Part shown: positions 305 to 30,005 of the stretch, piece by piece
How positions within the stretch are numbered: position 1 is the stretch's first letter
Layout: the number at the start of each line of letters is the position of its first letter
Source: Pseudomonadota bacterium
Lineage (GTDB): Bacteria > Bdellovibrionota_F > JAHFAK01 > JBDREC01
Length of the DNA stretch: 50,912 nt
Direction of reading: 5' to 3'
NCBI GenBank assembly: GCA_043820105.1
Contig: JBDREC010000031.1
Span: forward strand, 1 to 50,912
The notes under the pieces: model-generated
The model's database searches: none
The model's input: the letters and a program-made list of their open reading frames with translations, nothing else
What the model was told of the DNA's origin: nothing
Position numbers and translations under genes: made by a program

Positions 305-1732
305 ATGAATTTTGTAGGTAGAAATTATGAATTTAATCTTTTAAGGCAGGAGCATGGTAAAAAAAGAGCTAGCTTAATCGCTCTTTATGGAAGAAGACGG
401 GTTGGGAAAACACGTTTAATTGAAGAATTTCATAAAAAAGCCACCCTTTGGAAATTTGAAGGACTTGAAAAACAAGCGAAATCAAAGCAGATCCGACATT
501 TTCTAGCAACTTTAAGCCAGCATAGTAAAAATCCATTATACGAAACAGCGAACTGTAAAAATTGGATTGACGTGTTTAAACTTTTAAATGCTGCGATCCT
601 TGAAAATAACAAAACCAATAAAAATATTATTTTGTTTTTTGATGAATTGCCCTATATGGCGAACAAAAGAACAGAGATTATTTCGGACTTCAAATGGGCA
701 TGGGATAACCTATGGTCAAAAAAACCAAATATTAATTTTATTCTTTGCGGATCAATTGCTTCATTCATGGTTGACTCTGTGATAAATTCTTCAGCATTAT
801 ATGGCAGAATAACCCTTGAAATATGCTTAAAACCACTATCACTAAAAGATTGTTATAATTTTTTCAACAGAAAAAAATCTTTCCGGGAAATAATAAATCT
901 TTATATGGCCATCGGCGGAATTCCTGCCTACCTTTTACAATTTGATCACAATACTTCAATCGCAAATAATCTAAACAAATTAGCTTTTTGCAAAGATGGA
1001 TACTTTGTTAATGAATTTTCCAGAATTTTCAAGGATGTATTTTATGAAGATAAAATTTATAAAAAGATAATTGAGTTATTTTCCAAACATAAAAGCTTAA
1101 AAACACCAGAAATACTAAAGGCATTATCTATGTCAGATGGAAGTGGTTTTAATAGATACCTTGATAATTTAGAAAAAGCTGGATTTATTGATAGTTATGT
1201 CCCTTTCAATAGACCTCTAGACAGCAAACTAAAAAGATATCGATTGTGTGATGAATACACATATTTTTATTTCAGGTTCATTAAACCTAATTTAAAACAA
1301 ATTCAAAACAATACTAACAATAATATTTATTCTCAAATTATACTATCTGCTTCATATAAAGCATGGTCAGGATTAGCTTTTGAAAGACTTTGTATAAAAC
1401 ATGTTAATTCTATAATTAAAAAACTTAAAATTGATCAGCTAGTTAAAAACTTCGGTCCATACTATAATAGATCTACCAATACCAGAGATGGTGTGCAAAT
1501 TGATCTTCTATTGGAACGCCATGATCCTGTTATAACAATATGTGAAATGAAATTTGTAAGTCATAAAATTGGCAAATGGATCATTAATTCAATTGAGGAT
1601 AAAATAGCCCTTTTACCTGCTTCAAAAATGAGTATTGAAAAAGTGTTGATAACAACAGAGGGCATAACAAAAGACTTAAAAGATACAAACTACTTCTCAA
1701 AAGTTCTTTTGGAGGACTGTTTTTTTGATTAA
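305..1732 (+). CDS. AAA+ ATPase (archaeal ATPase_2 type) with wHTH and C-terminal PD-(D/E)xK nuclease-like domain (DUF234/DUF4143 class)
   Basis: N-terminal FVGR..E, Walker A GRRRVGKT, Walker B FFDE, LCGS, GGIPAYL, and C-terminal QIDLL...ICEMK. Confidence 0.85.
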   Translation: MNFVGRNYEFNLLRQEHGKKRASLIALYGRRRVGKTRLIEEFHKKATLWKFEGLEKQAKSKQIRHFLATLSQHSKNPLYETANCKNWIDVFKLLNAAILENNKTNKNIILFFDELPYMANKRTEIISDFKWAWDNLWSKKPNINFILCGSIASFMVDSVINSSALYGRITLEICLKPLSLKDCYNFFNRKKSFREIINLYMAIGGIPAYLLQFDHNTSIANNLNKLAFCKDGYFVNEFSRIFKDVFYEDKIYKKIIELFSKHKSLKTPEILKALSMSDGSGFNRYLDNLEKAGFIDSYVPFNRPLDSKLKRYRLCDEYTYFYFRFIKPNLKQIQNNTNNNIYSQIILSASYKAWSGLAFERLCIKHVNSIIKKLKIDQLVKNFGPYYNRSTNTRDGVQIDLLLERHDPVITICEMKFVSHKIGKWIINSIEDKIALLPASKMSIEKVLITTEGITKDLKDTNYFSKVLLEDCFFD

Positions 1733-1793: not shown

Positions 1794-2552
1794 TTAATGT
1801 TTTTGTTCTGTTTCCAGAACCTCAATCAAATCGTTCATAGTAATTATCAATTTATAAGCAAGTCCAGAAAGCTCTTGCAGATCCAATAAGCCAGATAATT
1901 CCTGTTCAACTCTTACGGCGGATATTTTTTTTGTTTCTAGTTTTAATTGATTAATAAATTCTGAAAGGCTCATTTGTTTTATTGTTTTTAACCTGGGTAT
2001 TCGTGAATTAACAGATTCAAGCCTTTTTTTTAAAACTTCTATGTTTGGTTTAATTTGTAATTTTTTAAATAAAAAATAGATATCATAAAGATCTCTTGCA
2101 AGTCTTCTTTCATTCCAGGCTGCGAGTTTGTGAGCAAGAGCATGGTCTAAAGACATTATTCTGATGATTTGTCCAAGTTGATTTGTTTTTTTTGCAATTG
2201 TTGATGTAGAAATAGCTTCGCTTTTGGCTTCCAGGGAAGTTGAGGCTTCAATTTGAATTTTGATCTTATCTATATTAATATTATATCTAAGAGATGTTGA
2301 ATGCATTTTCATTTCTATTTTTGCATTTGGAATTTCAGCAAGAATGTTTCCTAGCTTTTTAACAATATCTTTTTTGGACCTATAGGGCACAAAAAGATAA
2401 TCAACATCATTAGTGTATCTTGGAGAATCAAGTAAGTTTAAAACAAAACCACCCTTTAATATTGCATTATCTAAAAACTCTTCATTTATTCGATGTATTA
2501 ACCAAGTAAAAACTGTAAGCTGATCAAATTTTTCTGGGAATATACTTTTCAT
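1794..2552 (-). CDS. AbiEii/AbiGii-family nucleotidyltransferase toxin (type IV TA)
   Basis: ILKGG, RYTNDVD, LAHKL, RDLYD motifs; 4-nt overlap with the upstream antitoxin gene. Confidence 0.85.
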   Translation of the reverse strand: MKSIFPEKFDQLTVFTWLIHRINEEFLDNAILKGGFVLNLLDSPRYTNDVDYLFVPYRSKKDIVKKLGNILAEIPNAKIEMKMHSTSLRYNINIDKIKIQIEASTSLEAKSEAISTSTIAKKTNQLGQIIRIMSLDHALAHKLAAWNERRLARDLYDIYFLFKKLQIKPNIEVLKKRLESVNSRIPRLKTIKQMSLSEFINQLKLETKKISAVRVEQELSGLLDLQELSGLAYKLIITMNDLIEVLETEQKH

Positions 2553-3145
2553 GCTAATAATCCTTTTACAAAAGAAGTAAATTTATTGTTTTTATATTTT
2601 TTTAAATATAAAAATATTTTGCCCTTATCAAACAGTGAAAAATCTATATCTGAATAAATATCAAAATAATATTTTGTTCCCTTTTGATAATAATAGAGGG
2701 TATCAATCAATGCTTTTTCTTTGTCTGCTACATTAACTCCATCTAAGCAAGTAAAACCGAAAAACATATCTTTTGAGCTTCCAAGTTGAATAATTTGATA
2801 TTTATCATCAGAATAAATTCTTTTTCTCCCAAGTTTAACAGCCTGTAATTTGAATTTTGAGCACGTGCCAATTGCAAAATTTTCAGAAAGAACTGTTTCA
2901 AAGCTAATATAAGAACAAGGGTTTATTTTTTGACTTAAAATTTTTAAATCCGGTTCATTAACATAATACACTGATTGAGTGAATCTCTTTAATATTTGCA
3001 GTTTTTCTAAATTTCTTATTATTTCATAAAATTGTGCCTTGTTTTTTTGAGCCAAAATATTTTTCAAATCAGAAAGATAAAAAACATTGCCTAGTTCATT
3101 TGCATAAACCTGAAGACTTTCTACTATTTTTACATATTTCATCAT
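2549..3145 (-). CDS. AbiEi-family antitoxin / transcriptional regulator (type IV TA)
   Basis: N-terminal wHTH-like region, SYISFETVL and ADKEKALIDTLY motifs; directly upstream of AbiEii. Start placed at ATG 3145 (or 3142) because the ORF-track TTG at 3184 is the -35 box. Confidence 0.8.
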   Translation of the reverse strand: MMKYVKIVESLQVYANELGNVFYLSDLKNILAQKNKAQFYEIIRNLEKLQILKRFTQSVYYVNEPDLKILSQKINPCSYISFETVLSENFAIGTCSKFKLQAVKLGRKRIYSDDKYQIIQLGSSKDMFFGFTCLDGVNVADKEKALIDTLYYYQKGTKYYFDIYSDIDFSLFDKGKIFLYLKKYKNNKFTSFVKGLLA

Positions 3146-3155
3146 AATACCATTA

Positions 3156-3184
3156 AATATATACTTTTTCCAACTTAGTGTCAA
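3156..3184 (-). promoter_or_regulatory. sigma70-type promoter of the abiEi-abiEii operon
   Basis: TTGACA (3184-3179), 17-nt spacer, TATATT (3161-3156). Confidence 0.65.
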
Positions 3185-3525: not shown

Positions 3526-3587
3526 ATGACAGACAAAGTAAGGCTTTCATACATTTCATACAATGGTTAGAACAAAAAATGAAATAA
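3526..3587 (+). pseudogene. HEPN toxin remnant (start joined almost directly to the 3' end)
   Basis: ATG ACA GAC AAA GTA (MTDKV), then in another frame FIQWLEQKMK*. This parallels FIKWIKQKLS* at 3974-4006 and overlaps the MNT start codon in the same way. Confidence 0.55.
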
Positions 3588-4006
3588 AGAAAATTTGTGC
3601 AGATTATATAAATTTGGTAAATAAAGCTTTTTATATTAAACAAGCATATTTATTTGGATCTTATAATAATGGTAATCCTAATAAATATAGTGATCTTGAT
3701 GTTGGATTAGTTTCATCAGATTTTAAATATATACCAGCAGATATTGCATTAAAGATATTATTTCGTCTCGCCAGACATGTTGATTCTATCATTGAACCAG
3801 TTGCATTAACAGAAGAAGGAAATGTATTAAAACAGCTGTCTCCCGAGCAGGAACAGTTAATTATTAAATTAAACCCCTTTTATATCAAAGCCAGATATCC
3901 CGACTATAAGGAAAAAATATCCTTATCTGTTAATAAAAACTTCAATGAAAGCATAATAAAAGAAACCAGGGATTTTATAAAATGGATAAAACAAAAACTA
4001 AGCTAA
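3563..4006 (+). pseudogene. MNT nucleotidyltransferase fused in frame to the C-terminal half of a HEPN protein (deletion chimera)
   Basis: N-terminal LFGS...SDLDV MNT motif; after about aa 85 it switches to LSPEQ...LNPFYIKARYPD...WIKQKL, a typical HEPN C-terminus. Confidence 0.7.
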
Positions 4007-4305
4007 ATAAATTATTAAAAACGTTTTTAGAAATTGTGGACAAGTGTTTTTTTATTGAAAGCATTTATGTGTTCGGTTCTTATGCAAACAATAAACAAAA
4101 AACATACAGTGATATCGATTTAGCTTTGGTATCAAGAGATTTTCAGTTTACAGATACCGAAACAATAATGATAATTCTTGCAAGAATCGCCAGGTCTACA
4201 AATTCCAAAATCGAACCTGTCGTTTTTTCAAATGAAGAAATTAAAAAACCTGTCTTGGGAACTTTGGCCTGGGAGGTTGCCAATAAAGGCTTAAAATTAC
4301 GCTGA
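3982..4305 (+). CDS. minimal nucleotidyltransferase (MNT) antitoxin
   Basis: VFGSYA...SDIDLALVS..F, IEP, and EV..KG motifs; 107 aa; paralogous to the N-terminal part of 3563..4006. Confidence 0.85.
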   Translation: MDKTKTKLNKLLKTFLEIVDKCFFIESIYVFGSYANNKQKTYSDIDLALVSRDFQFTDTETIMIILARIARSTNSKIEPVVFSNEEIKKPVLGTLAWEVANKGLKLR

Positions 4306-4393: not shown

Positions 4394-7300
4394 TCACAAA
4401 CTTACATGAACGTATGGCAACAACAACTCCCAAAGGCTGTTACCCCCATGTGAATATCTGTTTTTTAGTTGACCAGTATCAATAAATCCATGATCAGACA
4501 TAAGGGTAAAAGCTGGAATATTTTTTAAAATAGGAAGAATGCCTTCTGTAAACTCATTCTTAATGATTTTATAGAGCGGAAAAATATTTAATGAACTATT
4601 GTGAATTTTTGTATCAATGAAATTAAAATGTATTATTTTAATATCTTTATCGCTATTTAAAAAATTCATAAGTTTCCTTTTGCCAATATTTTTTTCAGCC
4701 CATTTAAGCATTTGATAGCTTTTTTCACCAATATAACCTTCTTCTTCTGAAATATTCAGAGTTTCACGGAACTTTAGTGTAGTTGATGGTTTTGAAATAC
4801 AATAAAGACTGTCTTTGACCTTCCAGCCATTTTTTAAAAACTCTTCTTTTAAATAATTATAGAGGTCATATCTTAAACAATCAAAAATAATCAGCACATC
4901 TTTAATTTCAATTTTAATTTCATCAATTTTTAAAATATCAGCAAATGGTTGTTTATGCTTTTGAAACCTGTTGAACAGATTGCTATAATTGTTCATAATA
5001 GATGGCAGAATATTTTCATCTATCAATGAATTATGACTCATCTCAAATTTTATCTTTTCCAAGAGAATTGTTACTGGAGCAATAATGTCAATAAAGATTT
5101 CTTTTGGTTTCTTTGATATATAATTATCCTGCATTAAAGTTTGAAGCTTTAATAAATCCTTTAAAAAATCGTCAGAAGTTTTTGCCAATATTTCATCTGA
5201 AATTATTTTGCCCTTTAATCTGTAATAAATTTCCTCCCTTATTTTGCTCTTTAAAAATTTTATCTTTTCTGAATTTAGCAGCCAAAATAGTTTATCAAGT
5301 TCATAAACAGACAAATTCAAATCGCTCATTATCTCCAGTTTTTCGTTTGCACTCAAGTCGTTCCCGATTTTATTCAAATTTTCATCGCCTGACAAGCTGT
5401 CATCAAATTCGAGGTTTTGCGTCTCCAGCTTATAGGCAAGCGCTTCCCCTTTTCTTCCGTAGCGCTTAAAACTTTCGAGCAACAACTGCTTTCTCTTGTT
5501 ATCATTATTCCTGAACCAGATAATTGCATCTTCATTTTCACCTATCCAATTAAAAAAATGTTTTTTGATTTCATTATACTTAAATCGCTTACCCTCAATT
5601 AAATTTAGGAAATCTGCTGTTTTTAATTCAACAAGCTTGAATTTTCCTTTAAGAATATTTTCGATTTCTATTAAAACATTTTCGGTAAGCAACTCGTACA
5701 ACAAAGCAATACTAACACTATCAGGACTAATGGAAATTAAGGAGTTTATGTTTTCAACAATAGTCCTTTTATCAGAAGTTGTCATATGAGTGACATATGA
5801 TTCCAATCTTTCTTTAGTTGATGGTACCTGCAAAGATTTTATAAAATTAGTCACTCCCAGATTAAGCAGCTCGTTAAAATCCAAAGCATTTCGAGAAATT
5901 TGATCCCCGATTTTAAAACCACAGGAACATTTGGGGCTTAAAAAAAGCTGATAAGCCAGATTTTCATTGCAGGCTACAGGAAGCTTGGAGAGCATACTTT
6001 CTATTTCGAACCAGTCATATTTAAAGGTTACAGAGGGAACATGCCTGCTTATGCTATTCAACATCTGAGATAACTCACAGGATTTAATGTTTTTCTTTAG
6101 GCCAAATATTGAGTTGTTATAATATGTTTTATGGTTTTCGATATAATAATCTTTGTATTTTTCGTAAAAATCCTCCCACATATCTCTGATTTCATTAAAT
6201 TTCTCTGTAGGTAAAAACAAGTATTCTTCAATCCTTAAGACCAGTAAGTCCAGCTCATTTTTAAGATCATCCGGTATTATTAATGTAAGATCTTTCAAAT
6301 ATAAATAATATTTGTTGATCATTTGAAAGTGCTCTGAAAACAAGCTATACAGGCTATCAAGATAGGCAAGGTTTTCGCTAAAATTATGATTTTCCTTAAA
6401 ATATGAAAGCACAATTTCCAGGCCCTCATTGGGTGATATCCTGCTGGAAAAAGAATTAAAGAACATAGATAATTTATTTAAAAGAGGCATATTTATATTT
6501 AAATATTTAAAAATAGAATAGCCCTCATACCTTTTTGCATAAACAGACAGCTCTTTAAGCATAGTTTTATATTTTTTTTGAGTAACATTAAAATCCCGGA
6601 ACATATTTTTTTTAGTTGCGTCAGTCGGATGTGCTTCAACCTCTCCCCAAATAAAATTCCCGACATTAATATACGCTAAAAGCTGTGACGGTAGTTTTTT
6701 TCCAATCTTAAATTGAGTAATACTGCCGGAGCTCAAGATATCATAATTATCCAGTTCTACAACTTCATCCTTGTTATATGGAACAAGGTATCCAGAGACA
6801 ATCAAAGCGCTCAAAAGCAAATATATCTGACTGACATTAAGTCCCCAGCTTCCCTTTCTTAGAGAAAGAATTAGTTCGTCAAAATTCAAATCCCTGCCGG
6901 CTGAAGCCATTTTCAAAATATAGGATATAATTTCATTCTCAGGATCACAGGCGACAAAATATTGGCCCCCTTTTATATTAATCAGATCCAGAGGCTCCAG
7001 TAAACCTTTGATATATGGGGTAAGGGATCTTTTATCAGCCTCAGCGAAAGTGATTTTTCCTTTTTTAATTACTTCTGAATAAAGATAATTCAAATGCCTT
7101 CCTGAATAGTATTCAATCCTTGGCATTATAGTGTGGTGCTTGTTGTGAATATTGGAAAGAGGCTTATCAAAAATATGAAACAACATTTTTTCCAGCGGAA
7201 TATAGCCAATTTGTTCCAGGTTTTCAATTTTGGATAAGGAACAAGATTTAATTGTGCCATCATAATAAATATTTTTTACAATTTCTTTAAATTCAATTTC

Positions 7301-9058
7301 TTCTTTTTTTATTTCTTCTTTAAGATTTGGATGCTCCAGGGATACAACCTTTTTTGAAAAGAACTCTTTTAAAAAGTCCAGTTCATATGTTGAAAGTTTT
7401 CTTGGAATCCAAAAAAGCAATAAGTCTTTAAAACAGGAGGTATAAGTTTCATTTATTGTATCAATAAATTTCTCGTCCACAGAAAATGGAGACATTATAA
7501 GTAGATAGCCGTCAATTCTGGTTTCCAGACCGTTTAATAACCTTTTGAACAGATCCTGATTCAACTGATTGGAATAAGTAGCTGCCACAACACCTTCTCT
7601 TTGGCTATTTTGCCAGGTAAAATAATATTTTTTACCTTCAATAATATCTTTCAGCGGCAGATAGCTAAGATCTGTATTTTTGCAGATATTATTAAAAAGA
7701 ATATTTTCATCTTGAAACTTATCCCTGTATTCTTTTATTTTTATTCTGGCCTTGACTCCTTCATCTAATCCTGGATCAACAAAATATCGTTTTTCCTCCA
7801 AAGAGATGTACATTTTTTGAGAGATGAGTTTATCAAGCACCCCCTCTTTAATATATTCATAATTAATATTATCAGATAATCTGCTGATTCTTTTTAAAAG
7901 CATTTCAGCAATTTCGCCAGCGTTCTTCCTTTTTTCAAATGGAGATATTTCAGTTAAAATCATAATTCTGATTATATCCAGGGCCAAATCCTGTGCTTTT
8001 TTATCTTCAAAGATCTCAGTTATATGACTTTTGTAATAATCATAGGCAATTCTTGCAAAAGAAGAGTATTCAGGGATTTCCCGAATTCTATCTTCAAAAT
8101 GATCAAAAATAGCTTCCGGGGTTATTAAAGTATCTGCTGGTTTCCCCATAATCTTATTTGCCTGCTCGGTCACAAAATGTATAATTCCCCTGTGTTGAGA
8201 AAAAACCGGAGTCAGACCAGATAAAAAGCCTACAGTAAACGGATGCAGGGGATAGGTTTTTTTAAATTCAGAATACTCAAATTTAAAATTCGGGTAATAA
8301 TCCATAAGCTCATTATAAACGGCCCTAATAACATTTTCTGATCCGCTTTTTTTTATTACTATCCTTTTATCAATAATATCTTCAATATGTGAAGTTGAAA
8401 GGGAAATCCTGAGGGGGTATCTGTCTTTAATCCTGTTAAACATGCCTGATGATAAATAGCCTGTTTCTTCGATGGATTCCTGCAAAGATGCAATTACCCA
8501 CAATTTCTTACTGAAAGAGTATTCACCTAAAAATTGTAAAAATCTGATATCCTCATTAAAGGAGGCTGAACTTGCTTTTGATTTCAAGAACTCTGACAAT
8601 TCATCAATCAGAATAATAGTCGGCTCTTTAATCAACAAGCTGTAAATATCATCTCTGTTTTCTACTTCACCCTGATAGGCAAAATTTTCCAGCACAATCT
8701 TTTCCAAATTCATTTTTGCAGGGTAATTGACCAATGAAATCTTTTTAATATTATATATTTCCTGCTGAATCGTGGAATATTTTTTTAAAATAGTATGATT
8801 GAATTTTTGCTGATTTTTCAATAATAAATAAAGATATGAAAGAAAATGAGATTTACCACTTCCGTAGTTACCTTTTAAAAAAACGCCACAGCCTTCTGCC
8901 TTATTTATTTTTTTTAATATAAGGTGCAGGTTGTTATTAATTTCCTCAGTGAATACAAAGGAGGACGTAAGGTCCTCAGGTATTTTTTCCGTATCAGAAA
9001 GTTCTATTACTAGCTTGACAGGAGCTAAATCAATTACATCTTTTATTGTTTTTCCCAT
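4394..9058 (-). CDS. BrxC/PglY (DUF6079)-like P-loop ATPase fused to a C-terminal PglZ-like alkaline-phosphatase-fold domain
   Basis: Walker A GNYGSGKSH, Walker B IILIDELSEFL, YPLHP, Zn motif C..(x)..SPKCSCGF. The C-terminus has IFDCLRYD, PSTT, IDTKIH, SDHGF and YSHGGNSLWE, the PglZ metal-site pattern. Confidence 0.75.
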   Translation of the reverse strand: MGKTIKDVIDLAPVKLVIELSDTEKIPEDLTSSFVFTEEINNNLHLILKKINKAEGCGVFLKGNYGSGKSHFLSYLYLLLKNQQKFNHTILKKYSTIQQEIYNIKKISLVNYPAKMNLEKIVLENFAYQGEVENRDDIYSLLIKEPTIILIDELSEFLKSKASSASFNEDIRFLQFLGEYSFSKKLWVIASLQESIEETGYLSSGMFNRIKDRYPLRISLSTSHIEDIIDKRIVIKKSGSENVIRAVYNELMDYYPNFKFEYSEFKKTYPLHPFTVGFLSGLTPVFSQHRGIIHFVTEQANKIMGKPADTLITPEAIFDHFEDRIREIPEYSSFARIAYDYYKSHITEIFEDKKAQDLALDIIRIMILTEISPFEKRKNAGEIAEMLLKRISRLSDNINYEYIKEGVLDKLISQKMYISLEEKRYFVDPGLDEGVKARIKIKEYRDKFQDENILFNNICKNTDLSYLPLKDIIEGKKYYFTWQNSQREGVVAATYSNQLNQDLFKRLLNGLETRIDGYLLIMSPFSVDEKFIDTINETYTSCFKDLLLFWIPRKLSTYELDFLKEFFSKKVVSLEHPNLKEEIKKEEIEFKEIVKNIYYDGTIKSCSLSKIENLEQIGYIPLEKMLFHIFDKPLSNIHNKHHTIMPRIEYYSGRHLNYLYSEVIKKGKITFAEADKRSLTPYIKGLLEPLDLINIKGGQYFVACDPENEIISYILKMASAGRDLNFDELILSLRKGSWGLNVSQIYLLLSALIVSGYLVPYNKDEVVELDNYDILSSGSITQFKIGKKLPSQLLAYINVGNFIWGEVEAHPTDATKKNMFRDFNVTQKKYKTMLKELSVYAKRYEGYSIFKYLNINMPLLNKLSMFFNSFSSRISPNEGLEIVLSYFKENHNFSENLAYLDSLYSLFSEHFQMINKYYLYLKDLTLIIPDDLKNELDLLVLRIEEYLFLPTEKFNEIRDMWEDFYEKYKDYYIENHKTYYNNSIFGLKKNIKSCELSQMLNSISRHVPSVTFKYDWFEIESMLSKLPVACNENLAYQLFLSPKCSCGFKIGDQISRNALDFNELLNLGVTNFIKSLQVPSTKERLESYVTHMTTSDKRTIVENINSLISISPDSVSIALLYELLTENVLIEIENILKGKFKLVELKTADFLNLIEGKRFKYNEIKKHFFNWIGENEDAIIWFRNNDNKRKQLLLESFKRYGRKGEALAYKLETQNLEFDDSLSGDENLNKIGNDLSANEKLEIMSDLNLSVYELDKLFWLLNSEKIKFLKSKIREEIYYRLKGKIISDEILAKTSDDFLKDLLKLQTLMQDNYISKKPKEIFIDIIAPVTILLEKIKFEMSHNSLIDENILPSIMNNYSNLFNRFQKHKQPFADILKIDEIKIEIKDVLIIFDCLRYDLYNYLKEEFLKNGWKVKDSLYCISKPSTTLKFRETLNISEEEGYIGEKSYQMLKWAEKNIGKRKLMNFLNSDKDIKIIHFNFIDTKIHNSSLNIFPLYKIIKNEFTEGILPILKNIPAFTLMSDHGFIDTGQLKNRYSHGGNSLWELLLPYVHVSL

Positions 9059-9966
9059 TTTTTTGCTCTTTTTATATATCCATAAAGATATTTTGCCTGA
9101 GGATTTTTTGCAATCACCTCATTAATATATTCAACATATTCAGCATATCCAAAAGTTTTATGAAAAATATTAAATATAGTTTGTACCAGATAATTATCAA
9201 AAGGAGCTTCAAAAAATACATTCTTTAAATATTTAAATGAACTCTTATAATCTCCCATTTTATAATATGTAAATCCCAGCATCTTTCTAGTAAACAGATC
9301 ATCTCTTAGCAATAATAATTTTTCATATATTTCAATTGCTTTTTCAAAGTCTTCTTGTTTTTTATAAAGCCCGGCCAAATACTGCAAAAGATCAGCATCT
9401 TCCCTATACTTTGGAATCAGTCGAAGACTTTCAATTTCCTCAAGCACTTTATCAATTTCCTTACCATTATAAATGTCTGCATAATATCTGTATTTTCGCT
9501 TTGGCGGTTCCTCATTTTTTACTTCGGTATTAAAAGCTTTTTCGTTAGTAAAATCAAATAAGTTGCCAGTGATTCTTTTTAATAATTCTGTCTTTCGATC
9601 CTCTGGAAAGATCCTTTCTAAAAAATTAACAAGAAAATTAATAAAAGTTTTATCCCAATTATTTTCGGTTAATACATGTCTTTCCAATAATGATTCTATA
9701 TCGCCTGTTGCTTTGACTTTTTCAAGTAGCAAAAGATAATTTTGCAGATAGAATGAATCTTGTTTTAAAAGTTCAAATTTCATTTCAGCTTTTATGATTG
9801 CTTCTTTCATTTTTCCGAGTTTTAAAAGAACATATATCTCATTTTTCTGAAAAAATAAATTTAAAGGATACGCTGCAAGAGCATTTTCAATTATCGAATA
9901 CGCCAGGCTATAATTTTTTTCATTATAACATGATTTTATTTTTTTAATATAGTCGTTTATATCCAT
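9043..9966 (-). CDS. tetratricopeptide-repeat protein
   Basis: Repeated TPR helices (YLAGLYKKQEDFEKAIEIYEKLL; LGFTYYKMGDYKSSFKYL); 16-nt overlap with the ATPase-PglZ gene. Confidence 0.8.
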   Translation of the reverse strand: MDINDYIKKIKSCYNEKNYSLAYSIIENALAAYPLNLFFQKNEIYVLLKLGKMKEAIIKAEMKFELLKQDSFYLQNYLLLLEKVKATGDIESLLERHVLTENNWDKTFINFLVNFLERIFPEDRKTELLKRITGNLFDFTNEKAFNTEVKNEEPPKRKYRYYADIYNGKEIDKVLEEIESLRLIPKYREDADLLQYLAGLYKKQEDFEKAIEIYEKLLLLRDDLFTRKMLGFTYYKMGDYKSSFKYLKNVFFEAPFDNYLVQTIFNIFHKTFGYAEYVEYINEVIAKNPQAKYLYGYIKRAKKWEKQ

Positions 9967-10183
9967 ATAGTTCTCTTAATAATATCATAATTATAATGCC
10001 CAAAAAACAAGGCCTCATTAATGCAAAATTCCAGAAAAATTCAACAAAATTTTTTCAAAGATATCTAATCGCTTTTCATTTCCCTGGATTTCAAATTAAC
10101 CTGTTCAAATATTCCGATGATATATTTGTTAATGTACTTTCATAAGGTTGTCAAAAATATTATCCTTTATTTTTTAATAGCCC

Positions 10184-10315
10184 TCACCCTGTAAGCACCA
10201 GACTCAGCCCGCTAACCAGAATCAGTATTAACATGATGGTTTTCTGGATTTTGTCACTTATTCTGCCTGACAAGCTGCTGCTAAAAATAATTCCGGGAAA
10301 GGAGTCAAAAAGCAT
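10184..10315 (-). pseudogene. 3' remnant of a second, divergent TauE/SafE gene
   Basis: Translates SFPGIIFSSSLSGRISDKIQKTIMLILILVSGLSLVLTG*, which aligns to the adjacent TauE C-terminus SFPGILLGSYISTTINDRVLKIIMLLLILTSGFSLIFMS*. Confidence 0.7.
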
Positions 10316-10354
10316 TAAACCCTCAACAACAAGAAACAACTCATTTCTTTTAAT

Positions 10355-12048: not shown

Positions 12049-12093
12049 CTCCTGCGCTCTTGTTCCCCTGTTCCCTTATTCCCTTGCGCTCTT
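12049..12093. repeat. octamer tandem micro-array abutting the cysN stop
   Basis: ctcttgtt cccctgtt cccttatt cccttgcg ctctta; same family as 24830-24869. Confidence 0.65.
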
Positions 12094-13900
12094 ATAAAAC
12101 AACACCCTTTTCCAGCAACAACTCCTTAACTTTGCACACAGATTCAAGTCTATCCTTATTATCCTCAATATGAAGATCTATATTTAAATCAGTTGTCACA
12201 TTTTTTCCAACCCAAACAGTTTCTAAAACACCTAGGCCAACAATAGTTTTGATCATTTCAATTTCATTTTGTGTTAATTCCTGGGCTGTAACAATTAATA
12301 AAATACCAGAATCAAGCATTATATTTGCAACTTCAGCTAGACGTCTAATGTGCTCATGCCTGTTTTCGGGATTTTTTTCTTTTGGAATGTCTGCGTCAAG
12401 GCCATGTATAATATTTCCGAGTCTTAAAAAATAAACAATTCTACCATCCATGAAAAGTTGTTTTTCTAGGATTTTAGCAAGATCCTTTCTGCCAGTTCTT
12501 TTTTCCCCAGTTATAATAATCATCTTGGGTTTTTGCTTATATTGCTGGGCTCGCAGACCTCTTGATATTTCTCCAATTTCCCAGTTTATGTTTCTTAGCT
12601 TTACATTATCTCTGATTGATTTTTGTGAATCTTCAATTTCTTCTATAATAATACCGCCACCAGATATTTCGAAGTTTTCACTGAGTACAAAGCGGCTTGT
12701 TTGCTTGCATGCAGACAATAAATCAAAGGCAATCTCATTTGCACATTTAAAAATACATTCACCTACTTCATATTTTTCAATAACCTTAATATCTTTTTTT
12801 TCTAAGTTTGAAGAGTTAATAACACTCAAGATGTTTTCAACTTTTACAGGTACTTTTGTAGTACACAATTTTAGCAAATATTCATTGCCAATTGCTATTG
12901 GTTTTTTACCAAGCCAAAAAACATTTGCTTTAAATTTTGTTGAAACCCTTGGCCCTTGTTCACCCAGTTTTACTGCTAAATCACCTCTTTTAATATAAAC
13001 TTGTTCTTCTAAAGTAAAACCAGTGGCTGATAAAGCTCCGTCTTCTTTCTTAATTGCTCCTTGAAAATATTCGATAGTTTTAACTTTGCTTTTTTTTAAA
13101 GAAGGATAGAACATGATTGTATCACCAATTGCATATTTGCCTGTTTCAATTGTTCCAGCTATGATACGCCTATTATCACCGTTTTGAGTAAACTTATAAA
13201 CACCTTGAACAGGCATTCTAAAGGCTTTGTCTAGCTCTGACTGCTCTGCATCAAAAGTATCTAAAATCTCTAAAACTGTTTTGCTATTGTACCAGTTCAT
13301 TTTATCAGATAACTTAGAAACACAATCACCCTCAATTCCACTAACTGGGATAAAGGTCCTTGCTTCAATATTAACATTTAATAAAAACTTTTTATATTCT
13401 TTAACAATAGAATTATATTTATTCTCATCATAAGCAATTAGGTCCATTTTATTTATTAGCACTGCTACTTGCTTTATGCCAAGCATGGACAATAAATATG
13501 CATGCCTTTTAGAATTTGCCTGAACTCCTTCTTTTGCATCAATGACCAGTAAAGCTGCTTCAGCCCGACTAGCCCCTGTTACCATATTTCGTAAAAACTC
13601 AATATGCCCAGGAGCATCTATAATAATATATTTTCTTTTTTCTGTTTGAAAAAAAACCCTGGCTGAATCAATTGTAATACCTTGTGCTTGCTCATCTTTA
13701 AAAGCATCCAGCAAAAAAGCATATTCAAATGGCTTAGAATTGCGACGACAGCTTTCCCTAACTATTTCAAGCTTCCCTTCGGGCAAAGAATCACTATCAG
13801 CTAAAAGCCGCCCAATAACAGTACTTTTACCATGATCAACGTGTCCAACTATAACTATGTTTAAATGTTCTTGCTTGCTAAAATTACTCTCAATAGTCAT
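12092..13900 (-). CDS. cysN: sulfate adenylyltransferase large subunit CysN with degenerate C-terminal APS-kinase domain
   Basis: [23 protein letters not shown] GTPase motifs. The C-terminal kinase-like domain has a degenerate P-loop (GEKRTGRKD) and [10 protein letters not shown]. Confidence 0.9.
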
Positions 13901-13940
13901 TTTTTTCCTTTAGAAAAATACACACTAAACATAAGCCCTC

Positions 13941-14000
13941 TCGTATTTTCTTACTACTTGAACTATTACTAAATACGTAATACGAAATACGTAATACGAA
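13941..14000. repeat. heptamer tandem micro-array (AATACG[T/A] x4) with short inverted partner
   Basis: aatacgt aatacga aatacgt aatacga at 13972-13999; tcgtattt at 13941-13948. Confidence 0.75.
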
Positions 14001-14008
14001 TTTACTTC

Positions 14009-14890
14009 TCACATATACCCATCTTTCCTCAATTCCTCCAAGCCCCCAGCATCTTCTTTGTCCTGCTCCCTCCCTGACCTCTCTGCGATATTTGAAAACT
14101 TTCCAGTTTTTAATTCCTCTATAATCTCAGAAACATCTTTAGCATCAGATTCAACGGGAGATGTGCAGGGATAACAACCAAGGGATCTATACCTTTTGCC
14201 TTCACCTTGATTAAAATACAAAGAAACCATTGGAATTTCTTCCCTTTGAATATATTCCCAAATATCAAGTTCTGTCCAATCAAGAAGCGGATGGATTCTA
14301 ACGTGGGTTCCTTTTGCAAAGTCAGTTTTAAATTGATTCCAAAACTCTGGTGGTTGCTGGGCTATTTCCCAGTCATTATTAATATTTCTTGGCGAAAAAT
14401 ATCTTTCCTTTGATCGTGACCCTTCTTCATCTGAACGAACACCAACAATCACACCAGTAAAAGCTTCTTTGTTATTATCAATTTCATATTCTTGGGAATC
14501 ATGATTCAAGCGAAACCGTGGCCAGGTTCCTGCTAGAGTATGTTTTAATGCTTCTGTTTTTAAAACCTTGCAGCAGTCTATTCTATTTAACTTCCCATCA
14601 GGATAAGTGTTTTTTTCGCTTAAAGCCTTTGTATTCATCCCATAGATCATGTCGATCTTCCATTCCCTTGCAAAAGCATCACGATATTCTGTCATCTCGG
14701 ATATTTTATAGTTTGTATCCACGTGGATTAATGGAAATGGAACGTGTCCATAAAAAGCTTTTCGAGTAAGCCATACAAGCACAGTGCTGTCTTTTCCAAT
14801 AGACCAAAGCATGCCCAAATTTTTAAAATTAGCATATGCTTCTCTTATAATATGAACTGATTTATTTTCTAATTTTTGTAAATTCTCCAA
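14009..14890 (-). CDS. cysD: sulfate adenylyltransferase small subunit CysD
   Basis: WSIGKDS, RSDEEGSRSKER, RIHPLLDWTE, RYRSLGCYPCT, ERSGR, GYM. Confidence 0.95.
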   Translation of the reverse strand: MENLQKLENKSVHIIREAYANFKNLGMLWSIGKDSTVLVWLTRKAFYGHVPFPLIHVDTNYKISEMTEYRDAFAREWKIDMIYGMNTKALSEKNTYPDGKLNRIDCCKVLKTEALKHTLAGTWPRFRLNHDSQEYEIDNNKEAFTGVIVGVRSDEEGSRSKERYFSPRNINNDWEIAQQPPEFWNQFKTDFAKGTHVRIHPLLDWTELDIWEYIQREEIPMVSLYFNQGEGKRYRSLGCYPCTSPVESDAKDVSEIIEELKTGKFSNIAERSGREQDKEDAGGLEELRKDGYM

Positions 14891-15401
14891 AATTATCTCC
14901 TAAATACTTTAAAATTATTTCAGCAGCTTCATCTATACTATATTTTGCAGTATCAATAGTAATTTCTGGGTTTACAGGAGCTTCGAAAGGATCACTAAAA
15001 CCCGTAAAGTTAGCTATATCACCATTTCTAGCTTTTCTATATAAGCCCTTAACATCTCGTTTTTCGCAATCTTCAAAAGAAGTTGAGACATACACTTCAA
15101 TAAAACTTGAACAAAGGTTTCTTACAAAATTTCTGGATTCAATATATGGAGAAATTAAAGAAACAATAGGAACAATTCCATGCTTTTCTAAATAATGGGC
15201 AATAAGTCCAACTCTTTTAATATGCGCGTCTCTTTCGCTTCTTGTAAATCCAATTTCAGGGAAAAGCTCTCTAATTGCATCTCCATCAAGATTTTCATAT
15301 TCAATTCCCAGAGAGTCAAAGTTTTTCATAATTGCATTAGCTAAAGTACTTTTTCCAGAACCTGATAATCCAGTAAACCAAAGAACAAAACTTTTAGTCA
15401 T
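14862..15401 (-). CDS. cysC: adenylyl-sulfate kinase CysC
   Basis: WFTGLSGSGKST, LDGD, ISPY, RDVKGLY, NFTG..DPFEAP. Confidence 0.95.
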   Translation of the reverse strand: MTKSFVLWFTGLSGSGKSTLANAIMKNFDSLGIEYENLDGDAIRELFPEIGFTRSERDAHIKRVGLIAHYLEKHGIVPIVSLISPYIESRNFVRNLCSSFIEVYVSTSFEDCEKRDVKGLYRKARNGDIANFTGFSDPFEAPVNPEITIDTAKYSIDEAAEIILKYLGDNFGEFTKIRK

Positions 15402-26677: not shown

Positions 26678-28252
26678 ATGACAAAACTTTTTGAATATAA
26701 ATCAAAAGAACTATTATCACAAAATAAGATTAAAATCCCTTTTGGAAAAATTGCTAAATCAGTTGATGATGCAACTTCAATCTATGAAGAACTACAAGGC
26801 ACTGTTATGATTAAAGGGCAAGCCTTTGTAACTGGAAGAGCTGATAAAGGAGCTATAAAAAAAGCAAGTTCCAAAGATGAAGTTAAAAAGTATGTTTTAG
26901 AAATGCTAAAATTAAAACTCGGTGGATTCGCTGTTGACAATATTTTGATTGAAAAGTGCGAAGACATTCAAAATGAAATGTTTGCTGGTGTAATAATTGA
27001 TGACAGCAATAAATGTCCTGTGCTTATTTTTAGTAAAAAAGGTGGGACAGGGATTGAAGAAATTGCAAAAGAATTTCCTGATTCAATAATCAAGCACCCA
27101 ATAAATATTAAAGACGGCCTAGAAGGCTATACAATTAGAAACCTATTGCGAAAAATTGAGATTACTGGAAATTTACAAACTAAGCTAGCTCTTTTCTTGC
27201 TTAATCTTTATAAGGTTTTCAGAAAATATGATTTAAGATCAATTGAAGTTAATCCAATTGGCTGGACTAAAGATGAAAATGTTGTAGCCCTTGATTGTCA
27301 TGCTACAGTTGATGATTATGCAGTCTTTAGACATCCTGAGCTTAATATTGATTTTGCAAGGGAACTTGATCATGCGCCTACATCACTTGAAAAAATAGCT
27401 TATAAAATTGAAAAAGATGATTTTAGAGGAACTTTTTTCTTTATTCAAACAGAAATACAAAGAAGCAAAGGCGAAAAATATTTAGGTTTTCATGGAGCAG
27501 GTGGTGGTGGGTCAATGATGGCAATGGATGCTATTTTAAATGAAGGATATAAAGTCGTAAATTTTTGTGATACTTCAGGAAATCCTCCTGCTTCAAAGGT
27601 TTATAGAGCAGCGAAAATCATTTTATCTCAACCCGGAATAATTGGATATTTTGGATCTGGCTCAGGTGTCGCATCTCAGGAGCAATTCCACTCCGCGCGC
27701 GGTCTTGTCAAAGCTTTTAATGAAGACAAAATTAAAATTCCTGTTGTTATTAGACTTGGTGGAAATTCAGAAGAACAAGCAATCAATATCTTAGAAAACT
27801 ACACTAAAGATTTAAATATTCCTATCAAATGCTATGGGAAAGATACACCTGTGCAGGAATGCGCTGAGGTTTTGGATAATTTAATAAAAGAAAACTGGAA
27901 TAAGTTAAAATCACTTCATGAAGAACCTAGTCTAAATCATATATCAAAAGCAGAAGATAAAATGGAAAAGATAAATGCATCCTATTCATTTAAGACGGTT
28001 ACAAATGGTACTATAAGTTTTGATTATGATAAGTGTAAAACTTGTGACAGCAAAGTTTGCATTGAGTCTTGCGTTTCAAAAATATTGGAACTAAATAAAA
28101 ATGTTCCAGCTTTAAATATTTCTTTTGAAGATGCAAAAAAAGGGAAGTGTTCTGAATGCCTGGCCTGCGAAGTTGAATGCCAATATGGTGGAGGCAACGA
28201 AGGATGCAGGATCATGCTTCCCATTGAAGGTCTTGATAAAGAAAGAAATTAA
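26678..28252 (+). CDS. succinyl-/citryl-CoA synthetase beta-like ATP-grasp subunit with C-terminal 4Fe-4S ferredoxin-like domain
   Basis: LFEYKSKELL, GGTGIEE, EVNP, GAGGGGS, DTSGNP, VIRLGGN. The C-terminus has CKTCDSKVCIESC and CSECLACEVEC. Confidence 0.8.
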   Translation: MTKLFEYKSKELLSQNKIKIPFGKIAKSVDDATSIYEELQGTVMIKGQAFVTGRADKGAIKKASSKDEVKKYVLEMLKLKLGGFAVDNILIEKCEDIQNEMFAGVIIDDSNKCPVLIFSKKGGTGIEEIAKEFPDSIIKHPINIKDGLEGYTIRNLLRKIEITGNLQTKLALFLLNLYKVFRKYDLRSIEVNPIGWTKDENVVALDCHATVDDYAVFRHPELNIDFARELDHAPTSLEKIAYKIEKDDFRGTFFFIQTEIQRSKGEKYLGFHGAGGGGSMMAMDAILNEGYKVVNFCDTSGNPPASKVYRAAKIILSQPGIIGYFGSGSGVASQEQFHSARGLVKAFNEDKIKIPVVIRLGGNSEEQAINILENYTKDLNIPIKCYGKDTPVQECAEVLDNLIKENWNKLKSLHEEPSLNHISKAEDKMEKINASYSFKTVTNGTISFDYDKCKTCDSKVCIESCVSKILELNKNVPALNISFEDAKKGKCSECLACEVECQYGGGNEGCRIMLPIEGLDKERN

Positions 28253-28256
28253 TTTC

Positions 28257-28323
28257 AGTCGTAAGTAGTATGTTGTAAGTCGTAAGAAATACTTACCACT
28301 TACCACTTACCACTTACCACTTA
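28257..28323. repeat. inverted heptamer micro-arrays (AGTCGTA-like x4 / ACTTACC x4)
   Basis: Fills the gap between the stop at 28252 and the GGAGA RBS of the next gene. Confidence 0.8.
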
Positions 28324-28334
28324 TCGGAGATAAC

Positions 28335-29234
28335 ATGTCCATTATTATTGATGAAAAGAAAAAAATCCTAATTCAAGGAATCACTGGAAGAGAAGGCTCT
28401 ACTAGAGCTAAACTAATGAAAGATTATGGAAGCAACGTTGTAGCTGGTTGCACGCCAGGCAAGGGTGGGCAAGAAGTGAATGGTATACCTGTTTTTGATA
28501 CGGCCGAAGAAGCTGTAGAAGAAACTGGACAAATTGATATTAGTGTTATTTTTGTTCCAGCGCCCCTTGTAAAAGAAGCCGCCTTAGAAGCTTTTGATGC
28601 TAAAATTCCTTTAGCCGTAATTATTCCTGACAGAGTTCCAATCCATGATGTATTAGAAATTTCTGAAAGGGCTAAAAAACTTGGCTTTAATTTTATTGGA
28701 CCTAATACTTTGGGTGTTTTATCTCCTGGGAAAGGCCTTTTAGGAATGATTGGTGGGAAATCTGAATCTGCAAAGCACTGGTTTAAAAAAGGTAAAATTG
28801 GTGTTGTTTCCAGATCAGGTGGAATGACCTCATCACTTGCTTATTATTTAAACCAGGAAAATATTGGGCAAACAACAATTGTTCATGTTGGGGGTGATGC
28901 GATAATAGGAATGCCTATTGCTGATGTAATGCTGGAATTTGAAAAAGATCCTGAAACAGAAGCTATGGTTATGTTCGGAGAAATTGGAACAAGCCAGGAA
29001 GAAGAAGTTGCTCGCTTAGTTAAAGAAGGTAAAATTAGCAAAAAAATAATTGCATATATTGGCGGAAAAGCAGCTAAAGAAGGAACCCGTTTTTCTCATG
29101 CTGGGGCTATAATAGAAGGAAATAAGGGTTCTTATCATGGTAAAGTATCTAGTTTAAAGGAAGCTGGAGTACATGTTGTTGAGAACTTCAATGATATTCC
29201 AAAAGTAACTAAAAATGTTTTAGGTATAAAATAA
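28335..29234 (+). CDS. succinyl-/citryl-CoA synthetase alpha-like subunit (SucD family)
   Basis: IQGITGREG, IFVPAP, IGPNTLG, SRSGG, GEIG, phospho-His motif FSHAGA. Confidence 0.85.
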   Translation: MSIIIDEKKKILIQGITGREGSTRAKLMKDYGSNVVAGCTPGKGGQEVNGIPVFDTAEEAVEETGQIDISVIFVPAPLVKEAALEAFDAKIPLAVIIPDRVPIHDVLEISERAKKLGFNFIGPNTLGVLSPGKGLLGMIGGKSESAKHWFKKGKIGVVSRSGGMTSSLAYYLNQENIGQTTIVHVGGDAIIGMPIADVMLEFEKDPETEAMVMFGEIGTSQEEEVARLVKEGKISKKIIAYIGGKAAKEGTRFSHAGAIIEGNKGSYHGKVSSLKEAGVHVVENFNDIPKVTKNVLGIK

Positions 29235-29246
29235 AAAGGAGTTATA

Positions 29247-30005
29247 ATGTCAGAATTCACCTGGGAAACAAAAATCACAAAAATTGAACCAAATAAATTA
29301 ACAGTTCGGGGACATAAGCTTGATGAGCTTATTGGCAAAGCAAAATATTCGGACATGGTTTATCTTTTACTCAAAGGAAATTTTCCAAATCAGGAAGTTT
29401 CAAATATTTTTGAAGCTATTTTAGTCTCTTCTGTTGATCATGGTGTTACACCTCCATCTACAATCGCAGCCAGAACTTCAGCTTCATCCGGGGCGCCTAT
29501 AAATGCAGCTTTAGCAGCTGGCATTTTGACAATAAATAAGCATCATGGTGGGGCTATAGAAAATTGCATGAATACATTAATAAATATTAAAAATATAACT
29601 AAGGGAAATGATCTTAAGCTTGAAGAATATATACAAAAGCTTGTTAAAGAAAACCGAGCAAATAAAATTCGATTTTCTGGTTTTGGCCACAGAATTCACA
29701 CTGATGATCCTAGGACTAAAAAGCTGTTTGAAATAGCAGAAAAAAATAATATTTGTAAAACTTATTTTCAGATCATTAGGTGCTTAGAGATAACAATTGA
29801 AAAAGAATATGGTAAAAAGCTACCAATTAATGTTGATGGTGCTATAGCTGCTATTTTATGCGAGCTTGATTTTAACTCAAAACTTGCTAATGCTTTTTTT
29901 ATAATTTCCAGGCTTCCTGGTTTATGTGCTCATATCCAAGAAGAGTATTCTATGAAACCTATGCGAACAATTGTGCCTAAAGAAGCTGAATATACTGGAA
30001 AATAA
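29247..30005 (+). CDS. citryl-CoA lyase-like protein (citrate synthase family)
   Basis: W.TKIT, DHGVTPPST, HHGGA, GFGHRIH..DPR, NVDGAIAA; short (252 aa). Confidence 0.85.
   Translation: MSEFTWETKITKIEPNKLTVRGHKLDELIGKAKYSDMVYLLLKGNFPNQEVSNIFEAILVSSVDHGVTPPSTIAARTSASSGAPINAALAAGILTINKHHGGAIENCMNTLINIKNITKGNDLKLEEYIQKLVKENRANKIRFSGFGHRIHTDDPRTKKLFEIAEKNNICKTYFQIIRCLEITIEKEYGKKLPINVDGAIAAILCELDFNSKLANAFFIISRLPGLCAHIQEEYSMKPMRTIVPKEAEYTGK

Follow-up and report, generated by a model that had tools for sequence, protein, structure and literature searches.

The contig JBDREC010000031.1 of Pseudomonadota bacterium (assembly GCA_043820105.1), the 50,912 nt of which are called the window hereafter, carries a two-gene operon that encodes a dedicated tetratricopeptide repeat (TPR) protein and a natural fusion of BrxC and PglZ, the two core proteins universally present in bacteriophage exclusion (BREX) systems. 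The N-terminus of the fusion protein is a BrxC-type AAA+ ATPase with intact Walker A and B motifs, and its C-terminus is, as judged from structural modelling, a stripped-down PglZ with a complete catalytic set, predicted to be a two-metal phosphodiesterase/nuclease. The two open reading frames (ORFs) are located on the minus strand and the ATG of the fusion gene (P0001) sits 16 nt inside the end of the TPR gene (P0002; overlap 9043–9058), exactly as described in the initial annotation of this DNA, which had been made without database searches. We propose that the operon represents an undescribed, methyltransferase-free relative of BREX with a probable role in defence or against mobile elements, a reading to which we assign a probability of roughly 0.55. 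Such a role is suggested by the homology of both enzyme modules, by the patchy distribution of the family and by some toxin–antitoxin or defence-like neighbours. The more specific proposal, according to which this is a self-contained, modification-independent defence family where a single-chain BREX core restricts foreign DNA through an ATPase-driven PglZ nuclease under a TPR regulator, and the helicase-bearing relatives are larger versions of the same machine, is put forward more tentatively, at somewhat less than even odds; the PglZ part would then act as a nuclease on DNA.

The N-terminal assignment was obtained from profile searches and from the predicted fold. The only Pfam family found in the fusion protein at E ≤ 0.01 was DUF6079 (PF19557), with an E-value of 2.4e-26 and 92 bits against a cut-off of 23 bits, the match spanning only aa 148–398 while the Pfam model is 1,238 positions long. 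The BrxC model of PADLOC matched aa 5–428 (E 6.9e-18), leaving the SspC models far behind, and the NCBIfam model BREX_BrxC gave an E-value of 1.9e-27. Since the score of the latter (96 bits) is below the cut-off of 400 bits, the fusion has to be regarded as a relative of BrxC and not as its equivalog. A sequence-profile search of the PDB reached BrxC over aa 183–247 only. When the AlphaFold2 model of aa 1–1105 (predicted local distance difference test, pLDDT, 85.4) was submitted to Foldseek, Acinetobacter BrxC structures were the best matches (E 6.7e-12, target TM-score 0.57), and VIA-align superposed aa 3–428 on residues 1–551 of BrxC 9zll_D with Z 24.7 and a root-mean-square deviation of 3.6 over 403 aligned residues, compared with only Z 12–14 for ORC/Cdc6 (approximately 14) and other AAA+ proteins. 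The AAA+ region is shorter than that of BrxC, 428 residues aligning to 551. The nine short motifs quoted in the initial annotation are all present, among them YPLHP at aa 269–273, but the Walker A motif starts at position 8846 instead of 8849. Conservation of these motifs was followed in a set of 76 sequences, consisting of 57 homologues and 19 proteins of a sister clade (Table 1).

The C-terminal module is hardly recognizable by sequence profiles. Neither the last 268 nor the last 668 aa gave any Pfam match even at E ≤ 10, and thus no match to PF08665, the canonical PglZ family, was obtained, whereas a precomputed PF08665 match exists for P0074 and P0079, two homologues of the sister clade. 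Among the NCBIfam models, the last 268 aa alone weakly matched PorX (E 1.7e-4, the best hit) and BREX PglZ type B (E 7.9e-4). The fold was predicted from an alignment of 56 full-length homologues, and the resulting AlphaFold2 model of aa 1106–1554 had a mean pLDDT of 89.8 and a predicted TM-score of 0.78. In Foldseek, the top matches of this model were PorX chains (E 2.8e-10 and weaker), followed by the Acinetobacter BREX PglZ 9zn5_B (E 6.5e-8), while other alkaline-phosphatase-fold enzymes reached only about E 0.02. VIA-align gave Z 19.4 with PorX over 256 aligned residues (model residues 163–449, that is, aa 1268–1554) and Z 16.3 with PglZ 9zn5_B over 348 aligned residues (aa 1184–1554); ENPP-type phosphodiesterases could be superposed on aa 1386–1554 only, with Z 10–11. 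Because the helical linker preceding the core is also common to PglZ, the module appears PglZ-like beyond the bare fold. The compact C-terminal domain of about 170 aa proposed in the initial annotation corresponds to the catalytic core, but the whole PglZ-like module including the linker is larger, about 290–370 aa, and the predicted folds of the two ends bear out the proposed BrxC(DUF6079)::PglZ architecture. The alignment to 9zn5_B begins only at about PglZ residue 225 and no counterpart of the N-terminal PglZ domains was found in the model. As the fusion protein ends with the catalytic core, it also lacks a C-terminal beta-sandwich.

The catalytic residues are distributed over the motifs FDCLRYD (aa 1392–1398), PSTT (1424–1427), IDTKIH (1481–1486), SDHG (1521–1524), and HGG (1537–1539). 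The set predicted to hold two metals (D1393, D1398, T1427, D1482, H1486, D1522, H1523, and H1537) was invariant or nearly so in the 57 homologues, and these residues together with R1396 and G1524 were invariant or at least 90% conserved in both the 57- and the 76-sequence sets. The core and its metal site are thus predicted to be those of an NPP-like two-metal enzyme of the alkaline-phosphatase superfamily, with the corresponding activity.

Between the two enzyme modules, the residues 429–812 had no sequence match to the solved BrxC proteins. According to the structural reports, the portions of BrxC beyond its N-terminal region are not resolved in any of the solved structures. The order of domains after aa 428 seems to fit that published for BrxC in the gkag035 preprint (Rakesh and Krishnan, NAR 2026), the middle region being taken here as a whole. 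Within the window's clade (defined below), the ATPase is the most conserved region of the fusion (mean identity 61%) and the helical region the least (41%). In the model, C1030, C1044, and C1046 are placed in a non-helical stretch flanked by long helices; a fourth ligand was not evident, and the cluster is plausibly a metal-binding or dimerising apex.

Table 1. Genes, protein regions and motifs of the TPR–fusion operon, with their positions in the window and the basis of each assignment
Feature	Position (nt)	Strand	Basis
TPR partner gene, 307 aa, P0002	9043..9966	-	Several Pfam TPR matches, best E 7e-7
BrxC::PglZ fusion gene, 1,554 aa, P0001	4394..9058	-	ORF and translation
BrxC-type AAA+ ATPase with lid and first winged-helix region, aa 3–428	7775..9052	-	Fold and Pfam/PADLOC matches
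Walker A GNYGSGKSH, aa 63–71	8846..8872	-	G63, G66, G68, K69, and S70 invariant in 76 homologues
Walker B IDELSEFL, aa 151–158	8585..8608	-	D152 and E153 invariant in 76 homologues
Mixed alpha/beta and helix-turn-helix-like middle region, aa 429–812	6623..7774	-	AlphaFold2, pLDDT mostly 80–93
Long helical, coiled-coil-like region, aa 813–1183	5510..6622	-	Model nearly all helix from aa 813
Cysteine cluster C1030, C1044, C1046, including SPKCSCGF (aa 1041–1048)	5921..5971	-	Invariant in 76 homologues
PglZ-like module (predicted): helical linker and compact alkaline-phosphatase-fold core, aa 1184–1554	4397..5509	-	AlphaFold2, fold match
PglZ catalytic core (predicted), aa 1386–1554	4397..4903	-	Fold match, conserved residues
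Intergenic region of 388 nt, 5′ of the TPR gene, presumed operon promoter	9967..10354	-	Sequence read

To see how far the fusion is distributed, protein and genome collections were searched. Eighty-five proteins were found at E ≤ 1e-3, the query included, which comprised a group of approximately 1,490–1,570 aa with 36–46% identity to the query, a second group (the sister clade) of approximately 1,660–1,790 aa with 24–30% identity, and a few canonical DUF6079 proteins of about 1,200 aa (E 1e-13 to 4e-6). With the C-terminal 278 aa alone, 69 clusters were recovered among 1.84 billion representatives, mostly fusions of 1,470–1,770 aa or shorter proteins. The single short protein that was examined (P0089) is colinear with aa 853–1552 and is therefore taken as a fragment, and a group of approximately 720-aa proteins matched the C-terminus weakly (E 1e-4 to 1e-7), having only the catalytic motifs in common with it. 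In genomic DNA, an earlier single-protein pattern scan of species-genome contigs matched 596 stretches, none of which encoded a relative, whereas an alignment-based scan of about 185,000 species genomes (one genome per species) succeeded: relatives were encoded in 99 of the 171 pattern-matched stretches, and 79 loci were kept. Because the search patterns were narrow, 99 is a lower bound.

A FastTree phylogeny was calculated from 59 full-length rows, rows shorter than 1,400 aa being left out and the submitters' taxon labels being uncertain. The window is a deep branch in a clade of 22 rows, which are labelled as Nitrospirota (12), Thermodesulfobacteriota (4), Nitrospinota (1), and Margulisiibacteriota (1) or unlabelled (4). 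The other clade contains 34 rows, of which 18 are labelled Thermodesulfobacteriota, 11 are filed under Myxococcota (though their titles say Deltaproteobacteria), two belong to Planctomycetota and three are unlabelled; the remaining 3 of the 59 rows are intermediate between the two clades. The phylum labels are thus mixed within the tree of the fusion protein. In two loci (L019:458-5153 and L026:1777-6168), two consecutive ORFs take the place of the single fusion gene, which may be due to a frameshift, an assembly error or decay.

The linkage of the TPR gene was then determined. Word-based protein search with the TPR protein gave a single relative, and a protein atlas search returned generic TPR solenoid clusters only. 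For this reason, the linkage counts rest on ORFs called in the 79 loci, which were searched with the TPR protein and with a hidden Markov model built from its own matches. A locus was considered informative if it contained at least 1,000 nt upstream along with the N-terminus of the match; 69 loci complied, L019, L021, L022, L023, L024, L028, L032, L060, L070, and L077 being left out. The TPR gene was found in 60 of the 69: it immediately precedes the fusion gene on the same strand in 30 loci, lies farther upstream but within 4.5 kb in 29 and follows directly downstream in one, while nine loci were without it. At least two of these nine (L026 and L061) stop at a RecQ gene on the contig edge, and so their TPR gene could lie beyond the contig. 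In the window's clade, which for locus counts comprised the 22 loci with an identity of 36% or more after manual exclusion of six rows, the gene was adjacent upstream in 16 loci, upstream in one, downstream in one and absent from four (L005, L009, L014, and L066). The 16-nt overlap seen in the window recurred in 10 loci, and an overlap of 4 nt occurred in six.

Pairwise identities of the TPR proteins correlated with those of the fusions, with r 0.93 over 120 pairs of the window's clade and 0.98 over 1,128 pairs, although the pairs are not independent, and the TPR tree gave the same clade and nearest neighbours as the tree of the fusion. The TPR protein diverges slightly faster (mean identity 42% versus 49% for the fusion), and its C-terminal half, approximately aa 170–307, is the most conserved part. 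The TPR gene is therefore a conserved, co-diverging neighbour of the fusion gene, as the initial annotation had anticipated, and we infer that its product binds the fusion protein. In locus L056 (925-2652), the gene directly upstream of the fusion encodes a B12-binding radical SAM protein with C-terminal TPR repeats, which replaces the usual TPR protein.

The description as a two-gene system holds for the window's clade but is too narrow for the sister clade. In 27 of the 47 loci outside the window's clade, a RecQ gene encoding approximately 790 aa is inserted between the TPR and fusion genes, its product containing DEAD, Helicase_C, RecQ_Zn_bind, RQC, and HRDC domains, and an SNF2 helicase of about 820–900 aa is encoded nearby in 10 of the 69 informative loci (three in the window's clade and seven in the rest). 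Some of the SNF2 helicases match the BrxHI/HII models, only behind ZorD and DpdE. The SNF2 partner has no homologue in the host genome of the window, where the two RecQ-like genes are on other contigs, so the window represents the minimal two-gene form. The RecQ proteins of the sister clade (L030:2178-4577, L047:7322-9652 and 26 other loci) have approximately 190 residues without Pfam match between Helicase_C and the zinc-binding domain, and the best PADLOC match of the operon-borne RecQ is DpdF (E 5e-180), followed by PsyrT.

For a wider view of the surroundings, 728 ORFs of at least 80 aa located within 8 kb were clustered from 76 loci (flanks of up to 10 kb per side, many of them shorter). 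The recurrent families were the fusion itself (76 loci), TPR (55), RecQ (28), and SNF2 (11), followed by generic response regulators (9), ABC ATPases (7), and DUF4143 ATPases (5). Methyltransferases did not form a recurrent family among these 728 ORFs, in agreement with the initial annotation, which had seen no DNA modifier beside the operon.

The family is rare, and its occurrence is patchy. It was detected in 4 of 81 sampled genomes of the order of one carrier (the L016 genome; E ≤ 1e-30) and in 11 of 61 genomes of the family of a sister-clade carrier (the L047 genome), while a search of the two genomes from the same order as the host of the window did not find the fusion, and the single genome of the same class contained only a BrxC-like frame of 1,305 aa with 22% identity. 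Since many of these genomes are incomplete bins, such counts mean "not found" and not "absent". The host lineage itself is very thinly sampled: among 60 genomes compared, two belong to the same order and one to the same class, the others sharing the domain only. Neighbours varied from locus to locus in the 25 loci of the window's clade inspected in this respect. TA-type neighbours in this clade include AbiEii, HepT/MNT, BrnT, ParE/Phd (twice), and PIN, and mobile or defence-like neighbours are represented by a transposase, a UvrD-DUF559 protein that matches GajB (2e-84), and DUF4143 ATPases matching PDC-S01. This picture would fit an accessory cassette with varying insertion sites on the chromosome, which are frequently, though not in every case, surrounded by defence-like genes.

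Comparison with known systems placed the operon nearest to the BREX core BrxC:BrxB:PglZ (type 1, Acinetobacter; 9zll, 9zdx, and 9zn5), with which it shares the BrxC-type AAA+ ATPase, the PglZ-type linker and phosphodiesterase core, and identical metal-site residues. Nevertheless, the locus does not qualify as a BREX system of types 1–6. It has the BrxC/PglY AAA+ ATPase and a PglZ fold with a complete metal and nucleophile set, but neither a modification gene nor the accessory genes were found, and PF08665 was not matched. In the structural descriptions, BrxC and PglZ are separate proteins in one complex, and the N-terminal domain of BrxC binds DNA and the BrxB:PglZ sub-complex; here they form a single polypeptide, and a BrxB that could bridge them was not found. 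Neither were PglX, BrxA, and BrxL detected at this locus, where the TPR protein is the partner instead. BREX PglZ is described in the literature with an N-terminal inactive helicase-like domain and a C-terminal beta-sandwich, for neither of which a counterpart was seen in the fusion.

Two other systems are related in composition. The type-3 BREX-related (BR) system (Rakesh and Krishnan, NAR 2026, gkag035) similarly has a helicase beside a BrxC-like ATPase, as well as a compact PglZ that stands alone and is free of additional domains; it consists of a DUF499 ATPase, an N6-adenine methyltransferase, an inactive STAND protein and a separate PglZ gene. In contrast, the fusion matches DUF6079 only, its PglZ is fused, TPR is its constant partner and no methyltransferase accompanies it, so that the combination of DUF499 ATPase, N6-adenine methyltransferase, and helicase that characterizes the DUF499-centred BR systems is not seen here. 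The HerA/FtsK-centred system in the same source resembles the fusion in having a DUF6079 ATPase and a reduced PglZ without PglX. This system is listed there with seven components (STAND NTPase, DUF4007, HerA/FtsK, GNAT, TGT, DUF6079, and PglZ), of which the other five were neither found in the window nor recurrent in the flanks of the family. The terms TPR, tetratricopeptide, RecQ, and BrxC-PglZ do not occur in the main text of gkag035, the supplementary tables of which may list such fusions. The novelty claimed in the initial annotation is supported by the absence of any PADLOC 2.0 model for the architecture beyond BrxC, by the location of the homologues outside complete BREX loci, and by a literature search, judged by title and abstract, in which no description of a TPR + BrxC::PglZ architecture was found.

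Several observations weigh against a defence role. At many loci the neighbours are housekeeping genes (LepA, TIM/SecG, ribosomal L13/S9, SecA, FtsZ, and Lgt), and the family was found neither on viral contigs nor on plasmids, where only three distant matches to the DUF6079 N-terminus were obtained. Moreover, the PglZ core comprises about 170 aa as compared with about 290 aa in the published description of BREX PglZ, and considering this together with the missing Pfam match, its substrate could differ from that of BREX PglZ. Housekeeping neighbours and the lack of matches in the plasmid and viral collections could also be expected from an accessory DNA-maintenance or repair machine that acts on stalled forks, DNA ends or unusual host DNA structures. 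This is the main competing explanation, the more so as a protein built from an ATPase head, an extended helical arm tipped by cysteines and a nuclease joined to it recalls the logic of Rad50-Mre11/SbcCD, RecQ with RQC and HRDC domains is part of the operon in more than half of the sister-clade loci, SNF2 is encoded near some loci, and locus L018 adjoins LexA and DnaE-like genes. We nevertheless consider it unlikely, since the family is patchy even within host families (4/81, 11/61, and 0/2 genomes), its chromosomal context is variable and phylum labels are mixed in its tree, apart from the PglZ of PorX, neither enzyme module is known outside BREX-type defence, and the host keeps two other RecQ-like genes elsewhere.

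The likeness of the C-terminal module to PorX (7pv7, 8tef, and related entries), which has the same helical bundle and PglZ core and scored above BREX PglZ in the superposition, raises the question of a signalling function. In this case, the PglZ module would not cut DNA but hydrolyse oligonucleotide messengers, either cyclic or linear, under the control of the ATPase and TPR parts, and would so tune a nucleotide-signalling pathway; both PorX PglZ and BREX PglZ cleave cyclic and linear oligonucleotides according to published work. However, PorX is a response regulator of type IX secretion with an N-terminal receiver domain, belonging to a two-component pathway, whereas the N-terminus of the fusion is an AAA+ ATPase and no Response_reg match was found in the protein. 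Neither a cyclase nor a CBASS-like partner (cyclic-oligonucleotide-based anti-phage signalling system) was seen in the window or among the recurrent neighbours, the module is joined to a BrxC-type ATPase of a DNA-binding kind, and the recurrent partners are DNA helicases, all of which makes a PorX-like role hardly probable. A classical BREX-like system, the methyltransferase or other modifier of which is encoded elsewhere in the genome and acts in trans, is also improbable. BREX restriction normally requires PglX, and the partner could be out of view in a genome that is 92.9% complete, with the contig end 4.4 kb away; but the ORFs within 8 kb at the 76 loci, with flanks of at most 10 kb per side and often less, include no recurrent methyltransferase family (no genome search for orphan N6-adenine methyltransferases was made), no canonical PglZ or second BrxC was found in the genome, and BrxA, BrxB, BrxL, and PglX were not detected among the 13 window proteins scanned. 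The lack of other BREX genes in the window might alternatively suggest that the fusion is a functionless orphan left by a decaying BREX locus. This was rejected, its chance being next to negligible, because the full-length frame is maintained with 36–46% identity across several phyla and the catalytic residues are invariant; the TPR gene, in addition, co-diverges with it.

If the operon is a methyltransferase-free defence relative of BREX, its working could be imagined as follows. The ATPase part would bind DNA and assemble using ATP, and this assembly would position or license the PglZ nuclease to which it is covalently joined. The TPR protein would serve as an obligate regulatory or targeting subunit. 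In the scheme of the initial annotation, a phage protein would be sensed by TPR, whereupon the ATPase would oligomerise and PglZ would act as an abortive effector. Since no modification enzyme travels with the family, methylation cannot mark self versus non-self. Discrimination could rely on a protein trigger read by the TPR subunit, as suggested in the initial annotation, or on recognition of a DNA structure, and we favour the latter because RecQ (with RQC and HRDC domains) and SNF2 partners occur in the related loci. The way in which BREX blocks phage replication has not been settled, one reason being that a methylation layer is intertwined with the action of six or more proteins. The fusion could isolate the restriction step in two polypeptides, with ATPase and nuclease site on one chain, one small partner and no methyltransferase. 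Were the proposal true, the operon would make the restriction step of BREX, which is still unsolved, accessible in a model of two proteins and would imply that BrxC and PglZ are able to act without epigenetic self-marking, with the helicase-containing sister clade as a built-in comparison. Should its function be other than defence, a BrxC-PglZ machine would for the first time be seen to serve a different DNA transaction, which would be informative as well.

The window is chromosomal, as indicated by a ribosomal-protein operon, secY, rpoA, dnaJ/grpE, and sulfate-assimilation genes, and belongs to a genome of 3.81 Mb with 32% GC. In this 92.9% complete genome the fusion gene is single-copy, and no second copy of the TPR gene, no second BrxC and no PF08665 match was found. 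PADLOC did not detect PglX, BrxA, BrxB, or BrxL among the 13 window proteins scanned, and Pfam scans of the window found neither a methyltransferase nor a helicase. In the presumed promoter region (9967–10354), no Rfam match was obtained and the consensus promoter scan singled out no site upstream of the TPR gene; this AT-rich DNA gave 55 promoter-like sites against 33.4 ± 6.6 expected, and the promoter and terminator scan was uninformative. Scans for tRNA genes, Rfam families and repeats revealed nothing that would mark the borders of an island. A search of sequencing runs brought up no RNA run, and one DNA run that contained 0.31 of the sampled words. One flank of the operon contains a PDC-S27-type ATPase, AbiEii/AbiEi, and MNT/HEPN-like ORFs, and the opposite one the sulfate-assimilation genes.

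The first of these genes (305–1732, plus strand) encodes a 475-aa ATPase_2 + DUF234 protein with a full-length match to PDC-S27, one of the candidate defence families of PADLOC (E 1.9e-120), and a related ATPase_2 gene is directly upstream of the TPR gene in locus L004. The AbiEii toxin and AbiEi antitoxin genes (1794–3184, minus strand) overlap by 4 nt, and AbiEii was also found near the homologous locus L003. The two small overlapping ORFs at 3563–4305 (plus strand) each contain a minimal nucleotidyltransferase domain, the first carrying in addition the C-terminal part of a HEPN domain; this could be an MNT-HEPN pair that has been rearranged or has degenerated.

On the other side, the genes at 12092–15401 (minus strand) belong to sulfate activation and encode a CysN-like GTPase with a partial adenylylsulfate (APS)-kinase domain, a CysD-like protein with a phosphoadenylylsulfate (PAPS)-reductase fold, and a separate full CysC. 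A PADLOC match to BrxP (E 4e-9) fell on the CysD-like gene (14009–14890), which lies beside CysN. Its interpretation as a type-4 BrxP was rejected and the gene was read as one of sulfate assimilation because it is within the cysN/cysC cluster and nothing of the kind recurs at the other loci. Farther away, three successive genes at 26678–30005 (plus strand) encode, in turn, an ATP-grasp/citrate-binding domain, a CoA-ligase domain and the C-terminal domain of citrate synthase. This arrangement resembles an ATP-citrate lyase in split form or a set of citryl-CoA synthetase/lyase genes and hints at a reductive tricarboxylic acid cycle.

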